Source: Minisyncoccales bacterium (GTDB lineage: Bacteria > Patescibacteriota > Minisyncoccia > Minisyncoccales > RBG-13-42-11). Taken from it: a stretch of 42,435 nucleotides of DNA. The stretch spans positions 1 to 42,435 of the forward strand of contig JBNAUV010000002.1 in NCBI GenBank assembly GCA_049700655.1, in the 5' to 3' direction. Made by a program: the position numbers and the translations under genes. Shown one piece after another: positions 3,744 through 29,448 of this stretch. The notes beneath the pieces are model-generated. The model made no database searches. It was not told the DNA's origin and saw nothing but the letters and a program-made list of their open reading frames with translations. Position 1 is the stretch's first letter, and the number at the start of each line of letters is the position of its first letter.

Positions 3744-3768
3744 TCATCTCTTAATAAATAATAAAAGC

Positions 3769-3868
3769 AAACCTCAAAATGCAAATCTCAAAATGAAAAT
3801 TAAAAATGGAAAATTAATTTTTAACTTTGCATTGTCATTTTGAAATTTGAGATTTGAATTTTAAATTC
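3769..3868. repeat. ORF-less copy of the A/T-rich inverted-repeat scaffold that flanks the 5323..5667 4HB gene
   Basis: Left half (ctcaaaatgcaaatctcaaaatgaaaattaaaaatggaaaatt) is about 90% identical by eye to 5280-5322. Right half (ttgcattgtcattttgaaatttgagatttgaattttaaatt) matches 5676-5722 apart from a 7-nt indel. The internal 11-bp stem is caaatctcaaa/tttgagatttg. Only about 10 nt separate the arms. Confidence 0.7.
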
Positions 3869-3875
3869 CAATCAA

Positions 3876-4490
3876 TTACTTCCTCGCGATCTGAATCTTA
3901 AATCTTTTACCAATCAATCTAATCGCAATCGCCAAAACAATTAAAACCAAAATTATCGTGTCCCACGGATGATATTTTCTATATAAACTGATAAATCGGT
4001 AATAAATCCCTTGAAAGATATTGGCAGGCGCAACCGTGAAATAAAGCTTGGCAGCCGCCGCCACTCCTACTCTTGTCTGACCGCTTTCGGCTTTTTTAAC
4101 CGGATGGCCTTCCAGATAAGCAAAATAATTTCCCGGAACGGTTTTTGTCGGCAGGGTCAATGTAATTTTGACCTGCTGAACCTGACCCGGCTCCAAATGA
4201 AATGAGGTCGGTTCAAAACTAAACCACTCTTTGGCTGGTTTTAATCCCATCTCAGGATTTGTTTCCTGCCCTTCATGATATTCAAGGGAAACTCCATATT
4301 CTCCCGGCTCATCTCCAGTATTTAAAACCGGCAAAGATGGCAAATCATAAATCATTCCCGCTTTTAAGGGTTTATCAACCTGAATTTTGCCAACCCCAAC
4401 TCCCACTCCAATTCTGCCGAAAACTACCATCGGCAAAACCAAAACCAAACCAGCCAGCAATATTAAACTAACTCGCGTCAGTTTTCCCAT
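3876..4490 (-). CDS. Signal-peptide protein with Ig-like (PapD/DUF916-like) domain and C-terminal TM anchor
   Basis: N-terminal signal/TM. Beta-rich segment with FEPTSFHLEPGQVQQVKITLTLPTKTVPGNYFAYLEG, typical of Ig-like surface domains. C-terminal TM (TIILVLIVLAIAIRLI) plus a basic tail. No family assignment is possible by eye. Confidence 0.6.
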   Translation of the reverse strand: MGKLTRVSLILLAGLVLVLPMVVFGRIGVGVGVGKIQVDKPLKAGMIYDLPSLPVLNTGDEPGEYGVSLEYHEGQETNPEMGLKPAKEWFSFEPTSFHLEPGQVQQVKITLTLPTKTVPGNYFAYLEGHPVKKAESGQTRVGVAAAAKLYFTVAPANIFQGIYYRFISLYRKYHPWDTIILVLIVLAIAIRLIGKRFKIQIARK

Positions 4491-4559
4491 AAATTTCTAT
4501 TTTTATTATTTCTCTATATTTCTATGTATTTCTACGTATTTCTACCAGTTTCTATTCAA
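4491..4559 (-). repeat. Array of TAGAAAT-type motifs upstream of 3876..4490
   Basis: Minus strand reads aatagaaactgg-tagaaatacg-tagaaataca-tagaaatatagagaaataataaaaa-tagaaattt-ATG. That is five to six copies of TAGAAA(T/C). Confidence 0.6.
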
Positions 4560-5084
4560 TTAGCTAGCCACTGCCTGAACAGTCACATCAACTGATTGCT
4601 GAGTATAGTTAGAAGTAGCTGTTGGCGTGCCCAATCTCAATTGAAAATCAACTGTGCCGCTTGTCGCAATGCCGGTATCCAATGTCGCATAACTGGTGGT
4701 TAAAGCAGTATAATTGGTTGGCGGTGTTGAACAATCATTGTCCGTATCATTGCAGAATTGATGAGTGTATTGTTCAGAACCAGGCGAAGATGCCAATGTC
4801 CAGTTAGCGCTGTTTTGTCCCTTGATATTAAAGTTTTCAGTGACATTACCGTTGTTAGTGGCAGTTTGCATATCATTCAACTCACCAGGAAGCGTACTTT
4901 TCCAGGTATTGACTGCCATTGTCCCATAAGCCACCGAACCATCAGAAACTGAAACCGAGATATTCTGAACCGTCACTGTGGCTGTCACTGTTGCTGTGTC
5001 AGCTGCCCTAACTATTGTAAAAACCATCATTCCTGCCAAAGCCAAAATTCCAATTGTGGCAATTAATTTCTTCATATAGTTCAC
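4560..5084 (-). CDS. Small secreted beta-rich protein, paralog of the C-terminal module of the 5723..8146 protein
   Basis: Signal peptide (TIVRA|AD) and an SD-like aaggtga 6 nt upstream. Residues 42-174 are about three-quarters identical by eye to the last 137 aa of the large protein (LPGELNDMQTATN.GNVTENFNIKGQN...WTLAS...QFCNDTD.DCS.PPTNYTALTTSY...QQSVDVT.QAV). Confidence 0.8.
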   Translation of the reverse strand: MNYMKKLIATIGILALAGMMVFTIVRAADTATVTATVTVQNISVSVSDGSVAYGTMAVNTWKSTLPGELNDMQTATNNGNVTENFNIKGQNSANWTLASSPGSEQYTHQFCNDTDNDCSTPPTNYTALTTSYATLDTGIATSGTVDFQLRLGTPTATSNYTQQSVDVTVQAVAS

Positions 5085-5127
5085 CTTAATTTTATTTTAA
5101 CCTTTTATTAAACTCGACCTTTCAAAT

Positions 5128-5152
5128 AAAAAAGCACGCTAAAAATGCGTGC
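5128..5152 (-). terminator. Hairpin plus T-run between the 4HB cassette and the 4560..5084 gene
   Basis: Minus strand: GCACGC-atttta-GCGTGC followed by tttttt. Confidence 0.55.
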
Positions 5153-5181
5153 AAAAATTTGCCTCTTTTAAGAGTTGTCTC

Positions 5182-5197
5182 AGAGAGAGAGAGAGAG
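5182..5197. repeat. (AG)8 / (CT)8 dinucleotide microsatellite
   Basis: agagagagagagagag read directly from the sequence. It is intergenic, upstream of the 4560..5084 gene. Confidence 0.95.
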
Positions 5198-5234
5198 TAT
5201 CTATTTGTCTTAAAACCCATCATAGTTTTATTAT

Positions 5235-5262
5235 ATTATAGCAAAGATTGTAAGGCAAGCAA
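5235..5262 (-). promoter_or_regulatory. Candidate sigma70-type promoter (TTGCTT-16-TATAAT)
   Basis: Minus strand reads ttgctt gccttacaatctttgc tataat. Downstream lie the (CT)8 tract, the hairpin at 5128-5152 and the 4560..5084 gene. Confidence 0.4.
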
Positions 5263-5270
5263 CTGTGGAT

Positions 5271-5722
5271 AAAATTCAAATCTCAAAATTCAAATCTCAA
5301 AATGAAAATTTAAAATGTAAAATTATTTTTTACCTTTCATAGTTAATACACCAGCACCGATAATTTTGGCAATTTCGTCCACTTCTCGAAGTAGTTTATC
5401 GGCTTGCACTTTCAAATCGGTTAAACTTTCCCTAACAAGAATTAACCAATATTTTGTTTCATTAGCACTTTTAAGAGCGATTTGGAAAAATTTCAAATAA
5501 TCAAGTTTTGAACTCGATGCTTTGGCTTCAATAATATTGGCTCCAATTGAAGTAGCTGAGCGTATTAATTGATCGGCTATTGACCATAAGTTTCTATCCT
5601 TGCGAACTTCCTGGCAGAATTTAATTATTTCTAAAGAAAATTTAATAAGCCGTCTATTAAATTCCATTTTGAATTTTGAATTGTCATTTTGCATTTTGAG
5701 ATTTGAGGTTTGAATTTTAAAT
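5271..5722. repeat. A/T-rich inverted-repeat scaffold enclosing a 4HB ORF ('filled' cassette)
   Basis: Left arm 5271-5322 (aaaattcaaatctcaaaattcaaatctcaaaatgaaaatttaaaatgtaaaatt) and right arm 5668-5722 (tttgaattttgaattgtcattttgcattttgagatttgaggtttgaattttaaatt) are mutually complementary, built from caaaat/ctcaaa units. The ORF sits exactly between them. Confidence 0.7.
5323..5667 (-). CDS. Four-helix-bundle protein (23S rRNA-IVS protein family)
   Basis: MEFNRRLIKFSLEIIKFCQEV...LIRSATSIGANIIEAKASSSKLDYLKFFQIALKSANETKYWL shows the family pattern. I moved the start to Met35 of the tracked ORF, because the upstream part is the repeat arm and overlaps the preceding gene. Confidence 0.8.
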   Translation of the reverse strand: MEFNRRLIKFSLEIIKFCQEVRKDRNLWSIADQLIRSATSIGANIIEAKASSSKLDYLKFFQIALKSANETKYWLILVRESLTDLKVQADKLLREVDEIAKIIGAGVLTMKGKK

Positions 5723-6136
5723 TTACGGTTGCACTGCTTGTATTGTAACATCAACTGATTGCTGGCCAAAGCAACTTGAAGGATTGGGTGTGGTCAGCCG
5801 TAATTGAATCTGGACCGTGCCATTCACCGGAATGCCGGTATCAAGCGATTGATAGCTGGTGGTCAAGGCAGTATAGTTTGTCGGCGGTGAAGAACAGTCA
5901 TAATCAGTATCATTGCAAAACTGATGGACATATTGGTCAGAGCCGTTAGTTGAGGCCAAGGTCCAGGTGCAGCCTCCGCCACTGGCATTCTGTCCTTTAA
6001 TATTGAAATTTTCCGTCACATTGCCGTCATTGGTTGCTGTTTGCATATCATTCAACTCTCCAGGCAAAGTGCTTTTTGAAGTATTAGCCGGCATAATCCC
6101 ATAAGAAACCGTGCCATCAGAAACCGAGACAGAAAC
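5723..6136 (-). repeat. Paralogous module copy (the other copy is 4560..4961)
   Basis: The similarity is visible at nucleotide level too, e.g. gtttgcatatcattcaactc(a/t)ccagg and cccataag..acc...ccatcagaaac are shared. Confidence 0.8.
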
Positions 6137-8146
6137 AATCGCCGCTGAAGCAGTGGTAATTTCTGGAATCACGCTGTAGGTATTCAAAAGCGTGCCATCG
6201 GCTTTGACAACGCGCAAGCAATAGGTGGTACTTGCCGGAGCGTTGTTATCTTTGAGCGAGAAATCCCATTTGCCGTCCTGTCCCGAAGGAATGGCCGCGA
6301 CAGAGTTTGTAAAATTATTTAATTCCTCGTAGGTTTGGTTCACAATCGTATCCGCGCCGTGGGTGGGGTCATTGGTGTTGGCGGTCAAGGTCGCGCCATC
6401 AGCCGGAGTTGGATTATCATTATAAGCAATTACTGTTGAAGTTGCAACGTCATTATAAGTTTCACCGGAAAAAGCAGTATCGCATAAATTATCTGTTCCG
6501 CGTTGGGCAAATTGAAGTTTGAAACTTTGACCATTTAAAGCTAATTGATTGGCGCCGATATGCAAAAGCATTCTTAATCTGAAAGCCGCGCCGGAAGAAC
6601 CAAGAGTCGCCGCCGTATCCTGCGCCGCCAAAGGAGTTCCGACATCCGTAGAATCAAGATTATTAAACAAGCGGTAAGCGGATTGGGTAAAAGTAGGTGT
6701 GGGAATAAACCGCCAGTACGCGAAAGAAAACGGCTGGGCGATCGCCGCCGGCAGATTCGCTTGAAGCGCGGCGCCGCCGTCGGCATTTGTCCAAGTAAAT
6801 GTTGGAGTAGCATTCATAATCAAACGCTTGGCAAAAAGGTCGTTGTTCACATCCGAAAGAGTAAAAATGAGCCGGTCTTTGTTGAAAGGATCTGTCTGGA
6901 TGTCATACCATTTTTGAGGATTGCCAAAAGCCGGCGTGGGAGTAAAGTCGGTTTGAATGGTAAAGGTGCCGCCATTGCCTACAATCCAGCCGACATTTGT
7001 TGCCGCAGAGTCATTGTAAGTGCAGACGCTTCTTTTGGTCGCGCCGGAAGTCAGCCAGCCGCAGGCAACAAGTTTTGTGCCGGCAAGAGGTGTCGCGGCG
7101 GTAGGATCTAGGTTTGCAGTATTGGTCCAGGCAGAGCCTGACCAGTAACCAATCTGAAGGTCAGAGCCGGCATTCCCAATTGAGGCAAAAACCATTTCAT
7201 CGGTATTGGGATTGGCGGCTAAATCCATATTGGTTGCGTCATCAGCCCAAGTTGGCGGGGTTTGGACAGCGCTCCAGGTGCAAGTTGAGGTGCCGCCGGT
7301 GCAGGTGGCGTATCTTACGCCGTTTGTGCCGTTTGCGCCAACGGAATTTGCCCAAATAACCATTACATCGCCAGATACAGATTCATATTCAACTTCAAAG
7401 TCATCGGGTTGCGTCGTAGCTAGCTCAAGCGAGGTTTCCAGAGCAGCGGATGGCTCATTGCCCCAGGCAGTGCCTGACCAGACCATTGCTGAAAGGTCGG
7501 CGTTGGCATCAGCCCAAATAGCGGTAATAAGATTAGAAGTAGAGCGTCGGTCCCAAGCCATTTCTACCCATTGCACCACGCCCGAAGTCCGAATCGGGTC
7601 AAGATTGGTTGCCGCTGACCAGTTAGCAGTGCCGCAGCCAGTTGATCCGGCTTTGGTGCGATACGCAAGCTCGTTGGTGGTTGCAGCATTAGTTGAATAA
7701 AGCACCATCACATCTCCGCTATTGGTTTCGTAAGCAATATCAAAACGCCTGGTGGTGCCGGTGCCGCCCACAGTCACGCTCCACTCATTCGTCCACGAGG
7801 TGCCGTCATAGCACATCACTTGCAAAACACCGCTGGAATTGACATATCCAGCAATGGCTTCCTGTTTGGTGGGCGAGGTGCGCACCACAAAATTGAGGCC
7901 TGTTGCGCCGCTAACTGTTCCGGTTTCCGCACCGAAAGAGTTAGTCCCGCCGTTATACGTCCTCCACTGCGGAGTGGTGTTGCCGGAGATGCCATAAAGG
8001 ATGAGTCCGTCACCGTTTGCAACATCGAGCGCCTGCGCTTTTTGAATCTCCGGCGGAATCGCCGGATTTTGCCAAATCCTCGGAAAACCGCTGAATATCC
8101 AAGCCATTATTAAAATAAAAATAAGAAAAAACTTTGAAAAAGACAT
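5723..8146 (-). CDS. Large secreted surface protein: Trp-repeat (beta-propeller-like) region plus C-terminal shared module
   Basis: Likely start is MSFSKFFLIFILIMAWIF (signal/TM), since the tracked start at 8200 lies in a repeat arm. Recurrent G-[ST]-x-W-[TG]-N segments (GTSWTNEW, GTAWGNEP, GSAWTNTA). Thr/Ala/Gly/Asn-rich. The last 137 aa are paralogous to 4560..5084. Confidence 0.75.
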   Translation of the reverse strand: MSFSKFFLIFILIMAWIFSGFPRIWQNPAIPPEIQKAQALDVANGDGLILYGISGNTTPQWRTYNGGTNSFGAETGTVSGATGLNFVVRTSPTKQEAIAGYVNSSGVLQVMCYDGTSWTNEWSVTVGGTGTTRRFDIAYETNSGDVMVLYSTNAATTNELAYRTKAGSTGCGTANWSAATNLDPIRTSGVVQWVEMAWDRRSTSNLITAIWADANADLSAMVWSGTAWGNEPSAALETSLELATTQPDDFEVEYESVSGDVMVIWANSVGANGTNGVRYATCTGGTSTCTWSAVQTPPTWADDATNMDLAANPNTDEMVFASIGNAGSDLQIGYWSGSAWTNTANLDPTAATPLAGTKLVACGWLTSGATKRSVCTYNDSAATNVGWIVGNGGTFTIQTDFTPTPAFGNPQKWYDIQTDPFNKDRLIFTLSDVNNDLFAKRLIMNATPTFTWTNADGGAALQANLPAAIAQPFSFAYWRFIPTPTFTQSAYRLFNNLDSTDVGTPLAAQDTAATLGSSGAAFRLRMLLHIGANQLALNGQSFKLQFAQRGTDNLCDTAFSGETYNDVATSTVIAYNDNPTPADGATLTANTNDPTHGADTIVNQTYEELNNFTNSVAAIPSGQDGKWDFSLKDNNAPASTTYCLRVVKADGTLLNTYSVIPEITTASAAIVSVSVSDGTVSYGIMPANTSKSTLPGELNDMQTATNDGNVTENFNIKGQNASGGGCTWTLASTNGSDQYVHQFCNDTDYDCSSPPTNYTALTTSYQSLDTGIPVNGTVQIQLRLTTPNPSSCFGQQSVDVTIQAVQP

Positions 8147-8150
8147 TAAG

Positions 8151-8622
8151 GGGAATTTTGAATTTTTAATTCTGAATTTTGAATCAAATGCGAATTTCAT
8201 AATTTTGAAACATTATTTACATGACGATAGAATTTTGCCAAAAATAAGCGTTAATTCCTGCGCTTCCTGCCAAAGTTTTCGCAATTCATTCTTTTTCTCA
8301 GGTAGACAACGCGACATCATACGCAGCCAGTGTTTTGTTTCCTGAGCCTCTTTTTTATAAATAAAAATTTTATTCTTAAAATCCTTCTTGGAACTTGCGG
8401 CGTTCGCTTCCATATAATTGCGCCGATACTTGTGCCAGAACGAACAAGCTGACTGATAGTCGGTTTGGTAATCGCATCCTGCTTTATGGCTTTGCAAAAA
8501 TCAATAATATCTTCTCCAAATTTCGCCGTCCGTTCTTCAAAATCGTATTTAATTTTTCTTGTTTCAGTCATTTAAAAATAAATTATTCATTCGAAATTCA
8601 AAATTCAAAATTTAAAATTGAA
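8151..8622. repeat. A/T-rich inverted-repeat scaffold enclosing a second (frameshifted) 4HB ORF
   Basis: Left arm is gaattttgaatttttaattctgaattttgaatc. Right arm is cgaaattcaaaattcaaaatttaaaattgaac. They contain the complementary 12-mers tgaattttgaat/attcaaaattca. The unit style matches 5271..5722, but arm polarity relative to the ORF is reversed. Confidence 0.55.
8213..8571 (-). pseudogene. Four-helix-bundle protein gene with a 1-nt frameshift
   Basis: Frame A gives MTETRKIKYDFEERTAKFGEDIIDFCKAIKQDAITKPTISQLVRSGTSIGA. The family pattern then continues in frame B (NYMEANAASSKKDFKNKIFIYKKEAQETKHWLRMM...). The junction at about 8415 (ggcgcaattatatgg) looks like the loss of one A. Confidence 0.7.
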
Positions 8623-8770
8623 CTTAGGCCAGCCGGAAAAAATCCAGCCTGTCGCCATCAAAAAAATAAAACAAAACACCAAAAGGGGGCGAATAAAGCT
8701 TTTTTTTAATTATTTTCACCATTTTATTCTATTTTATATATATTTTATTATATTTTACCAAATCTTCCCC

Positions 8771-8795
8771 CTGTCAACAATTACTGTCAACAATT
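8771..8795. repeat. Tandem direct repeat ctgtcaacaatt x2 (13-nt period)
   Basis: Read directly from the sequence. On the minus strand each copy contains TTGACA, and TATAAT/TAAAAT lie 14-19 nt downstream. It may be a promoter or operator for the surface operon, but the spacing is non-ideal. Confidence 0.5.
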
Positions 8796-8828
8796 CCCAC
8801 CCCTATTTAACCCCCCCATACCGAGCTA

Positions 8829-8863
8829 TCCCAAGGTTCGACCTCGGGGCGGCAACCTTGGGA
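8829..8863. repeat. REP-like hairpin, degenerate inverted copy, 3' of the RAYT gene
   Basis: tcccaaggttcgacctcgggg differs at 2 positions from the reverse complement of the 21-mer at 9411 and 9639. The outer 10-bp stem is tcccaaggtt/aaccttggga. Confidence 0.6.
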
Positions 8864-8894
8864 CAGTAACCTTGATATGGTATGGTTCTATTAT

Positions 8895-9623
8895 CTATTC
8901 TAATTCTAAGTAAAATGAATTGTTAATAAATTCAGCTTTGTATTTTATCCAATTTTCTATACTCTTTTTAAACAGCTTAATACCACCTATTGATTTTATC
9001 AAAAAGTCTCTTTCCGACACTGAAGGAAAATTCTTTTTTCCAATATAATCTAGATAACTTGACCACCTGTATGTCTCCAGAAACTTCATTGTTTTTTTGG
9101 GATTTTTAATTCCTTTTTCTTTCCATTTTGGCTCTATTAAAGAAATAGGGTTAGTATGGATATATACAGAAACATTTTTCAATTGATTATTATCTTTAAT
9201 ATGAACGGTCCGAAAGCCCTGAAAGAGATGGCCCTTTCTATTATATTTTTTATTAAAATAAACTGCATAACCAGTTCCAACTTTTCTCATAAATTCAGTA
9301 ATGCCCCCATCTTTAATCTGTTTAACTAATAAGTGAATATGATTGGGCATTAAACAAAAACTTAATATCTGAACAAACTTTTCCCTTTTATCAACTTCCT
9401 GCGGCAGTTTTCCCGAGGTCGAACCTCGGGATTTCTTTTTTAAATTGGCACGGGCTTTTCGACGGTCTTTGATAGAAACTGATTTTGCATTATTAAATTC
9501 GTAAAGTGAAAAAATACCCCGATAATAATCGTCGATATTCTTAAAAATCAAAGAATCTCCCACACCCCGAATCACAAGATGATAAAATTCATTATTAATT
9601 AATTCTATCTGTTTTCTTGCCAT
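8895..9623 (-). CDS. REP-associated tyrosine transposase-like protein (IS200-like Y1/HUH transposase family)
   Basis: N-terminal FYHLVIRG, HUH motif LMPNHIHLL, GHLFQGFR, catalytic-Tyr motif YIHTNP, and YRWSSY. The start is set at MARKQIE. The tracked extension to 9704 runs through the hairpin and the 16S terminator. Confidence 0.75.
   Translation of the reverse strand: MARKQIELINNEFYHLVIRGVGDSLIFKNIDDYYRGIFSLYEFNNAKSVSIKDRRKARANLKKKSRGSTSGKLPQEVDKREKFVQILSFCLMPNHIHLLVKQIKDGGITEFMRKVGTGYAVYFNKKYNRKGHLFQGFRTVHIKDNNQLKNVSVYIHTNPISLIEPKWKEKGIKNPKKTMKFLETYRWSSYLDYIGKKNFPSVSERDFLIKSIGGIKLFKKSIENWIKYKAEFINNSFYLELE
9411..9431. repeat. REP-like palindromic 21-mer inside the RAYT coding sequence
   Basis: tcccgaggtcgaacctcggga (8-bp stem, 5-nt loop) is identical to 9639-9659. 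It is in frame and encodes SRGSTSG. Confidence 0.9.
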
Positions 9624-9638
9624 AATTGTACCAAGTCG

Positions 9639-9659
9639 TCCCGAGGTCGAACCTCGGGA
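9639..9659. repeat. REP-like palindromic 21-mer upstream of the RAYT start
   Basis: tcccgaggtcgaacctcggga is identical to 9411-9431 and lies 228 nt (76 codons) from it. Confidence 0.9.
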
Positions 9660-9684
9660 TAATTCTATTTTAACAAAATAAAAC

Positions 9685-9714
9685 AAAATAATAAACCCAG
9701 CCAAAATGGCTGGG
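9685..9714 (-). terminator. Intrinsic terminator downstream of 16S rRNA
   Basis: Minus strand: CCCAGCC-atttt-GGCTGGG followed by tttattatttt. Confidence 0.65.
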
Positions 9715-9727
9715 GTTGTTGAAAATT

Positions 9728-9752
9728 ATTAATTACTTTAAGTTGTCCCGAC
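9728..9752 (-). promoter_or_regulatory. 3' arm of the pre-16S processing stem
   Basis: Perfect 25-nt complement of 11547..11571. The two arms bracket the 16S gene, as RNase III processing stems do. Confidence 0.75.
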
Positions 9753-9853
9753 CAGTCGCGACTTGAAGGCTCCACGACCAACACCTTGAAATCAAAAAGA
9801 GAATTCTCGCTTTTCGATTTCAGTCGACACTATTTTCTAATTTTTAAAATTAG

Positions 9854-11510
<1,657 letters not shown>

Positions 11511-12285: not shown

Positions 12286-12729
12286 TTATATTTCGTATCT
12301 GGTAAATCTTTTAACTGTAATATTTTCTCCCAACTTGGCAATATATTCTTTAATTAAATCATTAATGGTTTTACTCTGGTCTTTAATCCAAGGTTGTTCT
12401 AATAAAGCCATTTCTTCGCCCATTGCCGCAATTTGTAAACACAATTCATGGGCTAAGTTTTGAAAATCTTTTGAACGACTGACAAAATCTGTTTCGCAAT
12501 TTAATTCCAAAAGAACGCCAATTTTATTATTAGGATGAATATAACTGGCAATAACTCCTTGGCTGGTTTGACGATTAATTTTTTTTGCCGCCACTTCTTT
12601 CCCTTTTTTTCTTAAAATCTCTTTTGCCATTTCTAAATCCCCTCTTGATTCAATTAAGGCCTTACGACAATCGGAAATAGAAATCCCTGTCTCTTCCCGA
12701 AGTTGCTTGATTTGATTGATAGATATCAT
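12286..12729 (-). CDS. tsf: Elongation factor Ts (short form)
   Basis: The N-terminal UBA-like IKQLREETGISISDCRKALIESRGDLEMAKEILRKKG and LELNCETDFVSRSKDFQ are EF-Ts hallmarks. It lies downstream of rpsB, the conserved synteny. Confidence 0.85.
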   Translation of the reverse strand: MISINQIKQLREETGISISDCRKALIESRGDLEMAKEILRKKGKEVAAKKINRQTSQGVIASYIHPNNKIGVLLELNCETDFVSRSKDFQNLAHELCLQIAAMGEEMALLEQPWIKDQSKTINDLIKEYIAKLGENITVKRFTRYEI

Positions 12730-12831
12730 AAAAATTTTAAATTCTAAATTTTTAATTTTTAAATAATGTCTAATTTTTGATGTTTAAAAAATTTGAGTAT
12801 TAAAATTTATTTTAAAATTTGAAATTAAAAA

Positions 12832-13575
12832 TTATTTCACAGACTTGGGTTTTGCTTTTATTATCACCTCTTTAACCTTATCAAGAATATATTTCACCGA
12901 TGATATAGCATCATCATTTGTTGGGATGGGAAAATCAACTAACTCTGGGTTGGCATTGGTATCAACTATAGCAATAACTTTAATTCCTTTTTTTCTAGCT
13001 TCGGTTACGGCCGCCGCGTCTTTTTTTATATCAACCACAAAAACCGCATCGGGCAGGGTTGTTAAATTTTTAATTCCAGCGAATTTAATTTCCAGATTTT
13101 TTAATTCTTTGTCAAAAAGCGCTTTTTCTTTTTTGGTATACTTATCTAATTCACCTTTATTTCTTTTTTCCTCAAGGTTGTTAAAATAATCAATTCGCTT
13201 TTTAATTACTGGAAAATTTGTCAAAGTGCCCCCCACCCAACGCTCGGTCACATAAGGCAAACCGCACTCACTGGCTAATGATTTAATTAATTCGCGCGCC
13301 GGAATTTTAGTGCCCACCAAAAGCAAAATTTTGTTTTCACTAACCAACTGTTTGATAAAAATCAGGGCCTCTTTTAATTTTTCAATTGTTTTTGTTAAAT
13401 CAATCAGATGAATATTGTTTTTTATTCCACTTATATATGGTTTCATTTTGGGATGGAAATAAGAAGTCTGATGGCCCAAACAAAGACCGGCTTGGGTCAT
13501 TTCATTAATATCCAAACCAAAATCCTCTTCAGTATTTTGTTTTCTTGATTTTGTTTTAGTTTCTGTCTCTAACAT
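12832..13575 (-). CDS. rpsB: 30S ribosomal protein S2
   Basis: Motifs GLCLGHQTSYFHPKMKPYI, LLVGTK, WVGGTLTNF and VVDIKKDAAAVTEARKKGIKVIAIVDTN. The start is set at MLETE (13575). The tracked N-terminal 30 aa overlap the rpmE start and look spurious. Confidence 0.85.
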   Translation of the reverse strand: MLETETKTKSRKQNTEEDFGLDINEMTQAGLCLGHQTSYFHPKMKPYISGIKNNIHLIDLTKTIEKLKEALIFIKQLVSENKILLLVGTKIPARELIKSLASECGLPYVTERWVGGTLTNFPVIKKRIDYFNNLEEKRNKGELDKYTKKEKALFDKELKNLEIKFAGIKNLTTLPDAVFVVDIKKDAAAVTEARKKGIKVIAIVDTNANPELVDFPIPTNDDAISSVKYILDKVKEVIIKAKPKSVK

Positions 13576-13582
13576 ATAATTA

Positions 13583-13588
13583 ATTATA
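13583..13588 (-). promoter_or_regulatory. TATAAT box 7 nt upstream of the rpsB ATG
   Basis: Minus strand reads tataat-taattat-ATG. No good -35 element is seen. Confidence 0.35.
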
Positions 13589-13622
13589 TATCTATCATAA
13601 ACAAAAATAAAAGACAATACCC

Positions 13623-13651
13623 TTGCTTTATATGGAATGATGCTATATAAT
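13623..13651 (+). promoter_or_regulatory. Candidate promoter TTGCTT-17-TATAAT, 7 nt upstream of the rpmE ATG
   Basis: ttgctt tatatggaatgatgcta tataat aaaagat ATG. This geometry predicts a leaderless or near-leaderless transcript. Confidence 0.5.
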
Positions 13652-13658
13652 AAAAGAT

Positions 13659-13898
13659 ATGGCAAAAAAAGATATTCATCCTAAATATTATCCAAAAGCC
13701 AAAGCGCGTTGCGCTTGCGGTCAAACTTTTGAAGTTGGTTCAACCAAAGAATTTATTGAAGTAGAAATCTGCTCGAGTTGTCATCCTTTTTACACAGGCA
13801 AACAAAAAATTATTGATACTATGGGACGCGTTGAAAAATTTAGAAAAAAACTTACGAAAAAAGAAGAATTACAAAAAATGAAGTTAAAAAAATCTTAA
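13659..13898 (+). CDS. rpmE: 50S ribosomal protein L31
   Basis: [50 protein letters not shown], with a CxxC...CxxC zinc ribbon. Confidence 0.9.
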
Positions 13899-13950
13899 AA
13901 TTTTCTCTTTTCTTGTAATAATTTAGCCAATATTTCTTCTGAATGGTCTT

Positions 13951-15006
13951 ATGATTAATGTTGAAGATTTTAAAAAAGAATATAATGAACTATTGTCTCA
14001 ACTCAGCGACCCTGAGTTGATTTCTGATTGGGAGAAATTTGAAAAATTAAATAAAAGAAAGGGTATTTTAGAAAAGATTATGGAAAAAAACACGGAAATT
14101 GAAGAAATAAAGAAGAAAATTGAAGCTAATAAACAAATTTTAAAATCGCCCGACGATTTAGAACTAATTTCTCTGGCTGAAACAGAGATAGCTCAATTAA
14201 ATGAAAAATTAAAAATATTAGAAAAACAACTCCAAGATTTAATTTCAGAAAAAAACAAAAAAACTGATCAAGAAGCGCCTATAAAGGCCGTAATTGTGGA
14301 AATTCGGCCCGGCGCGGGCGGCGAAGAGGCCGCGCTTTTTGCCAGCGATTTATTTAGAGCATATTCAAAATACGCCCAAAAGAAAGGTTGGCAACAAAAA
14401 ATTTTAAATTTCCAACCCACTGATTTGGGCGGCATTAAAGAAATCAGTTTTGAACTAAAAAACAGCGATGTCTGGCCCTACTTTAAATATGAAGCTGGCG
14501 TGCATCGTGTCCAACGAATCCCCAAAACAGAAAAGGCTGGTCGTATTCACACCTCAACTGTTTCGGTAGTTGTTTTACCCAAGCCACAAAAGGGCAAAAT
14601 CGTTATTAATCAAAACGATTTAAAAATTGACACTTATAAGTCCTCTGGTCCGGGCGGCCAATATGTTAATAAAAGAATGTCGGCGGTTAGAATTACACAT
14701 TTGCCAACCGGCTTGGTGGTTACTTCGCAAACCGAAAGAAATTTACAGCAAAACAAAGAAAACGCTCTAAGTATATTGGAAGCCAAACTTTTAGAAAAAC
14801 AAAAATTAGAAGAAAGCGCTAAAATCAGCGCCACTAAACGTTCGCAAATTGGCCGCGGTCAAAGAGCAGAAAAAATCAGAACTTATAACTTTCCGCAAAA
14901 TCGGATTACTGACCATCGCATAAAAAAAACCTTCCATAATATTGAGGAAATTATGGAAGGCAATTTAGATTCGCTTATTACCCAATTACAAAAATCACTC
15001 GTCTAA
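13951..15006 (+). CDS. prfA: Peptide chain release factor 1
   Basis: PxT tripeptide context (RVQRIPKTEKAGRIHTST) and GGQ motif (SGPGGQYVNK). Confidence 0.9.
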   Translation: MINVEDFKKEYNELLSQLSDPELISDWEKFEKLNKRKGILEKIMEKNTEIEEIKKKIEANKQILKSPDDLELISLAETEIAQLNEKLKILEKQLQDLISEKNKKTDQEAPIKAVIVEIRPGAGGEEAALFASDLFRAYSKYAQKKGWQQKILNFQPTDLGGIKEISFELKNSDVWPYFKYEAGVHRVQRIPKTEKAGRIHTSTVSVVVLPKPQKGKIVINQNDLKIDTYKSSGPGGQYVNKRMSAVRITHLPTGLVVTSQTERNLQQNKENALSILEAKLLEKQKLEESAKISATKRSQIGRGQRAEKIRTYNFPQNRITDHRIKKTFHNIEEIMEGNLDSLITQLQKSLV

Positions 15007-28278: not shown

Positions 28279-29448
28279 TTATAAATAAAAAATGCTTTTT
28301 TCTTTAAATGATTTTTTAATTAATCTGTTTAAATTTAAATTTTTTTCCATTTTTTCAACCATCTCTAAATTACCTTGAGCTGTAACATGTTTGGGAGTAA
28401 ACAAAGTACAACAATCTTCTTGCGGTCTAATAGAGATTTCAAAAGTTTTAATTTTTTGCGCTAATTGAATAATTTCTTGTTTGTCTAAACCAATTAAAGG
28501 TCTTAAAATTGGTAATTTTACCACTGCATTGGTAATGCCTAGATTAGTTAAAGTTTGCGAACTAACCTGACCCAAGCTTTCACCTGTGACCAAAGCCAAA
28601 CATTTTTCTTGTTGAGCAATTTGCTCGGCGATTTTTAGCATGAGACGACGATAAAATAAAATTCGATAAGAGGGCGGAATTTTAGTTTTTATGGCCATTT
28701 GAATCTGACCAAAAGGATAAAAATAAATTTTTAGTTTTGGTTGATAATTTAAAAATCTCTGCGCTAATTCTTTGGTTTTTTCTATAGAGGCTGAAGAAAC
28801 CAAAGGAAAAGAATGGAAGTGAAGCCAAATATTCTCCGCGCCCCGTTTGGCCATTAAATAACTAGCCACTGGCGAGTCAATTCCGCCGGAAATTAAAGTC
28901 AAAACTCGACCGCTCGCACCCACTGGCAAACCGTCAGCACCTCTTTGTTTTTTGAAATATAAAAACCAGCCGACTTTTCTGGCTTCAAGATAAATTTCCT
29001 TTTTTGGTTTTTCTAGATCTACTTTTCGATTTATTTTCTGCGCCACTGTTTCAATAATTTTTTGACTTGATTCTTTTATTTCCGAACTCTTTTTTAGTCG
29101 CAAAGCAAAAGTTTCGTCCTTTTTTATCCATGTTTGATAATTTTTAGTAATAAATTTTACTAATTCCTTTAAACTAGCCCTCTCTAAAAAATAACTTTCT
29201 GAAAACCAAGCCACACCAAAAAGGTTTCTTATCAATTTAAGAATTAACCTGATTGGCTCTGTTTCAATAAAGATTCTTTCATGGCTAAGATAAATTTTAA
29301 ATTTCAAATTTTGCTTTTTTAAATAAAAGAGCAAATTATTTCTTAACTTTCTAACAAAATCTCTTTGTACGCCCGTTGACTTTAAAAACACTTCACTACC
29401 CAAGGCAATCAAAATTCCCTTTTTAATTTGAATGGCCATAAATAACAA
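28279..29448 (-). CDS. thiI: tRNA 4-thiouridine(8) synthase ThiI
   Basis: THUMP-like N-terminal half and PP-loop LISGGIDSPVASYLM. The start may be Met4 (29439). Confidence 0.8.
   Translation of the reverse strand: MLFMAIQIKKGILIALGSEVFLKSTGVQRDFVRKLRNNLLFYLKKQNLKFKIYLSHERIFIETEPIRLILKLIRNLFGVAWFSESYFLERASLKELVKFITKNYQTWIKKDETFALRLKKSSEIKESSQKIIETVAQKINRKVDLEKPKKEIYLEARKVGWFLYFKKQRGADGLPVGASGRVLTLISGGIDSPVASYLMAKRGAENIWLHFHSFPLVSSASIEKTKELAQRFLNYQPKLKIYFYPFGQIQMAIKTKIPPSYRILFYRRLMLKIAEQIAQQEKCLALVTGESLGQVSSQTLTNLGITNAVVKLPILRPLIGLDKQEIIQLAQKIKTFEISIRPQEDCCTLFTPKHVTAQGNLEMVEKMEKNLNLNRLIKKSFKEKSIFYL

Follow-up and report, generated by a model that had tools for sequence, protein, structure and literature searches.

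The stretch analysed here, 42,435 nt of contig JBNAUV010000002.1 from a Minisyncoccales bacterium (hereafter the window), is a chromosomal fragment from the candidate phyla radiation (CPR, Patescibacteria) with a G+C content of 36.7%; the closest relatives of its proteins lie in Staskawiczbacteria and Minisyncoccia assemblies, and its housekeeping genes include rpsB, prfA, enolase, GAPDH and ftsZ. On the minus strand, downstream of the 16S rRNA gene (9854..11509), lie in order an IS200/Y1-like open reading frame (ORF; 8895..9704), a hairpin scaffold that we call element B (8151..8622), the gene of an 825-aa secreted protein (5723..8200), a second scaffold, element A (5270..5722), a promoter, genes for proteins of 174 and 204 aa, a gene-less hairpin (3769..3868), the gene of a 338-aa dockerin/Ig-like protein, two further genes and a tRNA-Ile gene. 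Elements A and B each hold a gene of the four-helix-bundle (4HB) family known from intervening sequences (IVSs) of 23S rRNA, enclosed by inverted arms built from seven-nucleotide units. We read the three scaffolds, with a probability of roughly 60%, as members of a single family of palindromic selfish DNA elements that form hairpins and are of the rRNA-IVS kind, with gene-less derivatives that resemble MITEs (miniature inverted-repeat transposable elements). The features concerned are as follows.

5270..5722, minus strand: filled element A (5′ arm, 4HB ORF and 3′ arm), delimited by arm pairing, fold and alignment to the gene-less copy
5668..5722, minus strand: 5′ arm of element A, A-rich on the sense strand, with heptamer units CAAACCT/CAAATCT/CAAAATG and so on
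5323..5694, minus strand: 4HB gene of element A, 123 aa (23S_rRNA_IVP / TIGR02436), from HMM matches and homolog lengths
5270..5322, minus strand: 3′ arm of element A, complementary to the 5′ arm and U-rich in the sense direction
3769..3868, minus strand: ORF-less derivative with both arms and remnants of the first and last codons, between the stop codon of the 204-aa gene (3876) and the next ATG (3743)
8151..8622, minus strand: element B, with a 4HB gene (8213..8571), a frameshift near 8413-8419 and weaker heptamer arms (8153-8190, 8589-8622)
5230..5258, minus strand: promoter-like site of the 174-aa gene, TTGCTT-N17-TATAAT, kept in orthologous loci and marking the downstream side of the element A insertion site
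11269..11430, minus strand: 162-nt insertion in the helix 6 region of the 16S rRNA gene, whose core (11300-11411) consists of ORF-less inverted heptamer tracts of GTGAAAA/GTAAAAT type

A filled and a gene-less unit in one genome

Element A lies exactly between the promoter of the following gene and the TAA stop codon (5723-5725) that ends the 825-aa gene. Its arms (5270-5323 and 5666-5719) are 54 nt long and 81% complementary, and they pair with each other in the minimum-energy fold of the complete 481-nt unit (z = -4.0), which none of 100 shuffled sequences equals. The enclosed ORF matches PF05635 (E = 1.2e-21; 77.3 bits against a cut-off of 33.8) and TIGR02436 (90.7 bits; cut-off 24), and an in-frame ATG at 5694 marks the conserved start and gives a protein of 123 aa, the length of most homologs. 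A second ATG at 5667 would yield a 114-aa version, and some homologs have no ATG at that position; we therefore take 5694 as the start, which places the start codon and first nine codons (5668-5694) inside the 5′ arm. An earlier inspection of the letters alone, the sequence-only reading, had placed the 4HB gene between two mutually complementary arms, and this is borne out, though the ORF start extends into the 5′ arm.

The 4HB fold of the window protein rests on sequence relatives of solved structures (2rld_A, E = 1.1e-13; 2gsc_A, E = 2e-4), which have five chains per PDB entry, and its length falls within the ~110-130 aa range of the family. Scans against Pfam, NCBIfam, PADLOC and PHROGs match the 4HB family only, with no transposase or nuclease family among the matches. 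A defence or phage origin of the unit was considered and rejected, as the PADLOC and PHROGs scans gave no match, and 2.9 million viral contigs contained no match to the arm pattern and no close relative of the 4HB protein.

The arms of element A recur at the gene-less hairpin, where two 47-nt arms (3769-3815 and 3816-3862), 74-79% complementary, are separated by 0-10 nt (fold z = -2.8). In blastn-short comparisons within the 42-kb window, the left arm (5277-5337) matches 3768-3828 at 90% over 61 nt (E = 3e-16) and the right arm (5692-5723) matches 3836-3867 at 94% over 32 nt (E = 1.6e-8); aligned globally, the gene-less copy and element A are identical at 105 of 120 positions (87.5%) outside one 340-nt gap (5338..5677). 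The gene-less copy retains the last four codons and stop codon together with the N-terminal 'ATGACAAT', so that slightly less than the whole ORF is missing, and these remnants suggest a filled unit that has undergone internal deletion, not a virgin site. The sequence-only reading had described an empty copy of the arms; the recurrence of the arms stands, but the ORF is not wholly absent, 340 nt being gone with both ends kept. With at most two mismatches allowed, the 14-nt double unit CAAATCTCAAAATG has 10 matches in the window where 1.5 would be expected, with 8 of the 10 inside element A and the gene-less hairpin, which are the only two units of this arm family in the 42-kb window. Small (~100 nt), bounded by terminal inverted repeats and free of a transposase ORF, the hairpin at 3769-3868 shares these traits with MITEs.

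Element B had been described as a third scaffold that carries a 4HB gene in opposite polarity. The scaffold is real but weaker: its arms (8158-8184 and 8596-8622) are 27 nt long and 89% complementary, with an inverted-repeat score, defined below, of 43, and its 4HB ORF reaches 29.1 bits against PF05635, under the cut-off, because it is frameshifted. The opposite polarity is seen by eye, as a T-rich arm 5′ of the ORF, whereas the A-minus-T measure, at -0.09, is ambiguous.

Both units are absent from related genomes

Through homologs of the 204-aa protein, with 72-84% amino acid identity, we obtained five orthologous contexts on six contigs (loci are cited by L number), all with the same gene order. 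Between the stop codon of the 204-aa gene and the next start codon the window has 132 nt with the hairpin; the corresponding spacers in L081, L084, L083 and L082 are 8, 25, 28 and 47 nt long, without a hairpin, and that of L085/L086 has 86 nt with a solitary (TAGAAAA)4 tract and no hairpin, a hint that different heptamer families repeatedly land or grow in such spacers. In the spacer that separates the 174-aa gene from the gene upstream, all four relatives that cover the site (L081, L082, L083 and L085) have 94-125 nt and no 4HB unit. In L081 and L085 the stop codon is followed by 7-10 nt and TTGACA-N17-TATAAT; in the window the TAA is followed by the 453-nt element A, 8 nt and TTGCTT-N17-TATAAT.

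Both units, filled and gene-less, are therefore extra DNA compared with the relatives, lying directly after a stop codon. What is visible here is presence against absence, not a mechanism of insertion or excision, and the insertion polymorphism that the sequence-only reading had proposed to look for at orthologous loci is found at each of the two sites, in the five relatives without a hairpin and the four without a 4HB unit. A further idea of that reading, by which an ORF-carrying unit gave rise to the gene-less hairpin as a MITE-like derivative, gains support from this absence, from the 340-nt internal gap and from the multi-copy ORF-less forms described below.

The gene next to element A has features of its own. 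The leader of the 174-aa gene (5085-5270, minus strand) contains a AAGGTCGAG box conserved in all orthologs (L081-L085) and, in the window only, two further features between promoter and start codon: a (CT)9 tract and, at 5134-5152, a terminator-like hairpin. The 174-aa protein (4560-5084) and the C-terminal domain of the 825-aa protein (5723-6300) are paralogous, with 70% nucleotide identity over 409 nt.

Inverted heptamer arrays across the 4HB family

Our search gave 5,260 relatives of the window 4HB protein at E <= 1e-5. A scan of one genome per species gave 80 loci with relatives of 42-83% identity, from CPR lineages, Omnitrophota, Verrucomicrobiota, Bacteroidota (Mucilaginibacter isolates), Planctomycetota, Ignavibacteriota, Chloroflexota and others. 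To score inverted repeats (IRs), the 165 nt around the start of each ORF were aligned with the reverse complement of the 165 nt around its stop, with 481 other ORFs of 80-200 aa from the same loci as controls. The median IR score is 39.5 for the 80 4HB ORFs and 16 for the controls (Mann-Whitney p = 1e-39); 81% of the 4HB genes lie above the control 95th percentile and 70% above the 99th. The median arm is 46 nt long at 81% identity. Base autocorrelation of the arms is 0.64 for a lag of 7 and 0.59 for one of 14, whereas lags that are no multiple of 7 give 0.25-0.48, and this heptamer periodicity is present in CPR and non-CPR hosts alike. The A-rich array stands 5′ of the ORF in 58 of 62 elements, and none is clearly reversed.

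The same association emerges when the arms, and not the gene, are the starting point. A scan for complementary heptamer tracts in the 80 loci and the window gave 78 pairs, whose spacers are bimodal, with 47 at 350-425 nt, 12 at 0-75 nt and few between. Among the 58 pairs spaced by 300-500 nt, 55 enclose a 4HB gene detected by tblastn and 2 more enclose truncated 4HB-like ORFs. By tblastn, 4HB genes also occur on finished plasmids of cultured bacteria (Nostoc, Dolichospermum, Anabaena, Planktothrix, Bernardetia, Treponema and Chlorohelix), where 10 of the 11 examined have an IR score above the control 95th percentile and 8 above the 99th; since finished plasmids show the same architecture, it is not an artefact of metagenome bins. 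The plasmid heptamers include (GTAATTC)n, (GCAATTC)n, GGAGGTC/GGAAGTC, AAAAGTA, GTGATTA and AATCGTA, and on the cyanobacterial plasmids arrays such as (GTAATTC)n are perfect. On these plasmids the same heptamer is always found on both arms of a unit, and the heptamer tracks protein similarity, not host, with two different heptamers within one Nostoc strain.

Two results here go beyond the sequence-only reading: the arms are phased heptamer arrays, and the pattern spans the whole protein family. Its remark that the units are placed beside surface-protein genes is true of the window but does not carry over to other genomes, where the neighbours include tpiA-like, rpsL/rpsG, groEL, gyrA, cas1/cas2 and helicase/methylase genes.

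Some of these surroundings recur. On the plasmids of Anabaena cylindrica (L208) and Nostoc TCL26-01 (L213) a 4HB unit lies between cas2 and cas1, on the opposite strand; in L209, L216 and L217, which belong to three phyla, one lies between a helicase-related gene and a DNA methylase gene; and on two Nostoc plasmids one adjoins xisH/xisI. 4HB units seem to be frequent within defence and mobile-DNA operons.

Copies in metagenomes, in genes and in rRNA

Arm copies were sought beyond the window and sorted into filled and empty ones, as the sequence-only reading had suggested, by scanning metagenomes with an exact 22-nt pattern from the 3′ arm. At least 120 stretches match, and 80 loci with 85 matches were returned. 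Among the 85 matches listed, 25 are short gene-less hairpins against 6 that enclose a 4HB gene and 3 that abut one; 31 have no partner arm and 18 lie at contig ends, and the arms of L093/L094 are diverged gene-less hairpins that fell under the pairing threshold of the first classification. The units are multi-copy and dispersed, with at least five arm matches in one 187-kb contig. Independent deletion derivatives with recognisable ORF ends occur in L149 and, twice in identical form 3.4 kb apart, in L123, and an ORF-less family with the same ~45-nt loop occupies at least seven unrelated sites. L135 provides a case of nesting: ~300 nt upstream of the arm match, the loop of a CAAATCT-type hairpin contains a second heptamer hairpin, of AAAGCGC type. 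Such loops, like the tips of rRNA helices, may be favoured as targets.

Open frames of 171-715 codons span 19 of the 31 partner-less arms, about a dozen of which lie well inside conserved genes (L120; L133, at 9705-11177 and 12493-14457; L097, L096, L129, L148, L142, L146 and L112). These are single A-rich arms of ~54 nt, in frame, whose A-rich sense encodes peptides such as KFKMQNANLKMTIKNSKL, and their hosts include TatD, GatA, LigA, MiaB-like, TrxB-like, GyrA and YjeF-type dehydratase proteins, among others. Compared with the solved TatD structure 2gzx, the TatD tract falls on ~11 extra residues in a loop, and orthologs differ in having tracts: the YjeF-type protein of the window has none of the 19-26-aa segments found in L129 and L148. 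In L110, L137 and L143, whole hairpins overlap the starts of secreted-protein genes, the A-rich arm being read as KIQNSK... (K/Q/N-rich) and the U-rich arm as ILHFALSFCVLIFAFCIL (hydrophobic F/L/I/C); together the two stretches resemble a signal peptide, which such hairpins would seem to provide as the N-terminus. The open-access literature searched contains no report of heptamer tracts read in frame within CPR proteins.

The ThiI gene of the window (28279-29448, minus strand) contains a short heptamer-periodic tract at 29291-29319, translated KKQNLKFKI near the N-terminus, which may be a small or decayed in-gene heptamer tract of the same kind.

Heptamer hairpins are also found within rRNA genes. 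The 16S rRNA insertion of the window is built like the intergenic hairpins, from different units, and was picked up as a short-spacer pair in the heptamer-tract scan. In the CPR locus L116, the 4.2-kb 23S rRNA gene (4926-9161, minus strand) has a 170-nt insertion with CAAATCT-type arms in the apical loop of a hairpin, at model positions ~283-288, besides a separate 114-nt insertion and a group I intron. By its arm units, this copy ties the intergenic units directly to rRNA IVSs. The window scaffolds share with IVSs the complementary termini that form a long stem; they do not share the position inside an rRNA gene at a helix tip, as A, B and the gene-less copy all lie between protein genes. The idea that the hairpin-plus-ORF logic of rRNA IVSs recurs in intergenic DNA is supported by the same arm family in the L116 23S loop and by the like-built 16S insertion. 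Linkage to rRNA as a general rule was rejected: no 16S rRNA gene lies within 6 kb of the 80 genome loci, and an arm lies inside an rRNA gene in 1 of 20 metagenome loci scanned. In a survey of CPR rRNA, 23S_rRNA_IVP ORFs were found in both 16S and 23S insertions, along with many short unclassified insertions (PMC11270868).

The 16S rRNA gene (9854-11509) and the tRNA-Ile(GAT) gene (53-125) of the window lie 9.7 kb apart on the same strand, as do all genes between them, the three scaffolds included, and no 23S rRNA gene is present in the 42-kb window. In rRNA operons, the 16S rRNA and tRNA-Ile genes are normally neighbours.

Constraint and orientation

Compared with its homologs, the 4HB ORF has a dN/dS of 0.04-0.2, which indicates purifying selection. 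The arms are 78-91% identical between elements whose fourfold degenerate sites are 36-60% identical and whose flanks outside the arms are unrelated; with arm identity so far above that of the fourfold sites, the arms are constrained in sequence and not merely young. Across subfamilies, both arms change heptamer together. Of the genes upstream of filled units 73 of 77 run in the same direction as the unit, and of those downstream 63 of 74; the arms fill the spacers, whose medians are 47 nt (upstream) and 62 nt (downstream). Gene-less copies are oriented at random (9:9 and 6:10), and the four reverse-polarity copies seen (element B of the window, L104, L123 and L165) are all pseudogenes or remnants. 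Taken together, the selection, the co-direction, the random orientation of gene-less copies and the reverse-polarity pseudogenes suggest that insertion or persistence is orientation-blind and that the ORF survives only where read-through and an A-rich leader serve it, and otherwise decays to a hairpin.

Discussion

We propose that the full-length form of the selfish element is a ~370-nt 4HB gene (PF05635, Avd/S23p family) between two inverted phased-heptamer arms of ~45-55 nt, with the A-rich array 5′ of the gene and carrying its start codon. The gene seems to have no room for a promoter of its own and would be expressed by transcription reading through from the gene upstream. After transcription of the 3′ arm, the two arms are predicted to form a long A-U stem in which the start codon is hidden, and the fold and the position of that codon suggest that translation would take place mainly before the 3′ arm is made. 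By analogy with rRNA IVSs, RNase III would cut the stem and detach the unit from the flanking RNA, which would allow the element to be tolerated in rRNA helices and between cistrons; such cleavage of an S23p-bearing IVS stem has been established experimentally in Coxiella and others (PMC4990558). We infer from the conservation of the arms, the identical heptamers on both arms and the tracking of protein by heptamer that the 4HB oligomer may recognise the heptamer arrays of its own element, a role consistent with its five-chain crystal relatives and with the presence in the family of the nucleic-acid-associated Avd (PMC10053308).

A number of observations weigh against the interpretation of the scaffolds as selfish elements. 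The units encode no transposase or recombinase, and we know of no DNA-cleaving or DNA-joining activity of the 4HB fold. Comparison of filled with unfilled orthologous sites revealed no target-site duplication (TSD) at the window sites or in aligned copies, and the outer arm ends of aligned copies vary by heptamer number and type, with no sharp boundary. The presence and absence of units is seen between species-level relatives (72-84% amino acid identity) and not strains. The metagenome sample comprises 80 loci of at least 120 matching stretches, picked by one 22-nt arm pattern, and insertion of a palindrome does not account for its 31 single arms, many of them in genes. RNA-specific selection on the stem was rejected, as in a test of G:U against A:C asymmetry the sense strand had no excess of mismatches compatible with G:U (63 vs 80, p = 0.18), and as sense and antisense duplex energies are equal (44/83, p = 0.41). 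Within the closest subfamily, arms score 39 with their own partner against 32 with the arms of other elements (p = 0.005), with broad ranks, and within a subfamily sequence conservation outweighs pairwise covariation. Finally, the S23p protein of Coxiella is apparently not made in vivo (PMC4990558).

One alternative, which we consider unlikely, holds that the hairpins are resident cis-acting intercistronic RNA stem-loops, with a role in the stability, processing or translational coupling of transcripts, that arose and grew in place by heptamer slippage, with the 4HB gene a small regulatory or RNA-binding gene that uses them and nothing mobile. Slippage has been proposed for the excess of heptamers in genomes (PMC4692102), and stability or coupling roles for the 7-bp hairpins of short tandemly repeated repetitive sequences (STRRs; PMC2670836). 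Growth in place agrees with the lack of TSDs and sharp ends and with the varying heptamer copy number, but both units are absent at orthologous sites in relatives, the same-loop ORF-less family stands at seven or more unrelated sites, two identical derivatives lie 3.4 kb apart, and one copy is nested in another. Filled units are 95% co-oriented with upstream genes, fill their spacers exactly and have the start codon inside the stem, as a resident regulator might; gene-less copies, however, are randomly oriented. Similarly, the purifying selection on the arms comes without a sense-strand excess of G:U pairs, while arm and ORF are conserved together across unrelated flanks and the same arm family recurs in rRNA, intergenic DNA and ORFs.

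Much less probable is that an IS200/IS605-RayT-type Y1 (HUH) transposase, for instance the product of ORF 8895..9704, moves non-autonomous hairpin DNA in trans, with the 4HB gene as a passenger. DNA hairpins are the substrate of Y1 transposases, whose action produces no TSD, a mode that fits the lack of TSDs here. ORF 8895..9704 lies 273 nt from element B, contains a PF01797 Y1_Tnp domain (E = 5.6e-10) and weakly matches the model of REP (repetitive extragenic palindrome)-associated tyrosine transposases (RayT), but this match scores 39 bits against a cut-off of 80, and 1.5 Mb of element-rich loci contain only two tblastn matches to the Y1-like protein, so that it does not co-occur with the units elsewhere. 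Moreover, the arms are ~50 nt long, against 20-40 nt for REP palindromes, which flank a RayT gene, and GTAG/CGTC REP heads are not apparent in their sequences, a motif that was not searched for. The 4HB ORF, strongly purified and constrained in orientation, is not passenger-like, and the Y1-like gene has a more likely partner in the 19-nt G+C-rich palindrome CCCGAGGTCGAACCTCGGG.

This palindrome occurs at 8830-8848, 9412-9430 and 9640-9658, in or next to the Y1-like ORF 8895..9704, where none would be expected; the two copies within the listed ORF are read in frame as SRGSTSG, one of them upstream of the likely true start. It is a second small palindromic repeat, unrelated to the heptamer hairpins.

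We give very little credence to two further explanations. A role of the 4HB genes in a diversity-generating retroelement (DGR), as its Avd accessory proteins in the diversification of adjacent surface proteins, draws on the resemblance of PF05635 to Avd (PMC10053308), on secreted or surface proteins as neighbours and on the 409-nt repeat that links the 174-aa gene with the 3′ end of the 825-aa gene, but Pfam scans of 25 window ORFs of at least 200 aa, with seven others of that size unscanned, found no reverse transcriptase (RT), the 409-nt repeat differs by all substitution types, mostly transitions, and not adenine-specifically, and most 4HB loci examined have no nearby RT and share the arm architecture instead. 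That the similarity of the arms reflects A/T-rich low complexity and a one-off local duplication, with no element at all, a doubt raised by the sequence-only reading against itself, fits the 36.7% G+C of the window, the simple, internally repetitive arms with slipping registers and the fuzzy outer boundaries, but it is refuted by within-window E-values of 3e-16 and 1.6e-8, by 10 motif matches against 1.5 expected that cluster in the scaffolds, by controls from the same A/T-rich loci that score far lower, by the 120 or more exact 22-nt matches in metagenomes and by the same architecture with G+C-rich heptamers such as GGAGGTC in Nostoc.

Beyond the selfish-element origin of the three scaffolds, which remains our preferred interpretation, we offer a wider and distinctly more speculative proposal. 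PF05635 genes and inverted heptamer arrays could be the two halves of one ancient cross-phylum class of elements, in which the 4HB oligomer would act as a sequence-specific reader that drives spread or retention without a classical transposase, and this class could account for rRNA IVSs, for the heptamer repeats of STRRs, Xanthomonas and others, and for the in-frame insertions in CPR proteins.

The origin and spread of rRNA IVSs have been an open question since 1990 (PMC4990558), and two further puzzles concern the role of the very large 4HB family and the excess of heptanucleotide repeats with the nature of STRR hairpins (PMC2670836; PMC4692102). Our data connect the three, as the gene lies almost always within inverted heptamer arrays, the gene-less hairpins are deletion derivatives, and the arm family is found in rRNA as well as between and inside genes. 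The units also have practical effects, such as broken assemblies, spurious N-terminal extensions and long ORFs, and peptides inserted into conserved CPR proteins. We anticipate that the predictions made here can be put to the test in culturable hosts, for example Nostoc punctiforme and Mucilaginibacter.

Comparison with known systems

Several known systems share parts of this architecture. The 23S rRNA IVSs of Leptospira and Coxiella burnetii, with their S23p ORF, have in common with the units described here the PF05635 family, an ORF within complementary termini that form a long stem and a sporadic distribution; ORF-less IVS hairpins exist too, and the view of IVSs as relics of mobile elements is an old one. 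In contrast to IVSs, the window scaffolds are intergenic, and phased heptamer arms are not described in the open-access IVS papers examined.

The canonical STRR units of heterocystous cyanobacteria are CCCCAGT, TTGGTCA and CAACAGT, unlike those of the window, which has CAAATCT, CAAAATG and similar units; CAACAGT, repeated four times, was seen in L019 only. STRRs consist of 7-bp units able to form intergenic hairpins and have no accepted function (PMC2670836), and one is placed inside an RNase P RNA gene by the title of a paper cited in PMC2858038. They and other heptamer repeats (GGGAATC in Xanthomonas, GGGGAYT in Nostoc and TAACTGA in Beggiatoaceae) resemble our arms as tandem 7-nt units that are mostly intergenic, often form convergent hairpin pairs, vary in length between relatives and are found also inside a structured RNA gene (that of RNase P RNA), and the 4HB genes examined in Nostoc, Dolichospermum and Planktothrix are flanked by such arrays. 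Unlike in our loci, no enclosed 4HB gene is mentioned for such repeats (PMC2670836; PMC4692102; PMC4679880), and the window adds a CPR host and A-rich imperfect heptamers in place of perfect repeats.

RNase III-sensitive bacterial MITEs such as the Correia elements of Neisseria are likewise small, ORF-less, multi-copy intergenic inverted repeats that are co-transcribed with their neighbours and are internal-deletion derivatives of a longer ORF-bearing form; the hairpins described here differ in having no TSD and fuzzy ends and in that the parent ORF encodes a 4HB protein, not a transposase. Rickettsia palindromic elements are small repeats that lie in frame in conserved genes, at loops, and also in intergenic DNA and RNA genes, whereas the in-gene copies here are single A-rich arms (~54 nt), found in related metagenomic loci and not clearly in the window. 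The Avd protein of diversity-generating retroelements is a homologous small four-helix-bundle protein, and the solved relatives have five chains in each entry; the window gene, in contrast, is enclosed by inverted heptamer arrays, with no RT in the scanned ORFs and no template repeat/variable repeat pair.

We found no link of 4HB/S23p genes to inverted or heptamer repeats outside rRNA in the open-access literature. ORF-bearing and ORF-less IVSs, their stems and their excision by RNase III, which is not followed by religation, are already known, as are heptamer tandem repeats, often in convergent pairs; what is new, judged against that literature, is the existence of IVS-type elements outside rRNA, with defined heptamer arms and MITE-like derivatives.

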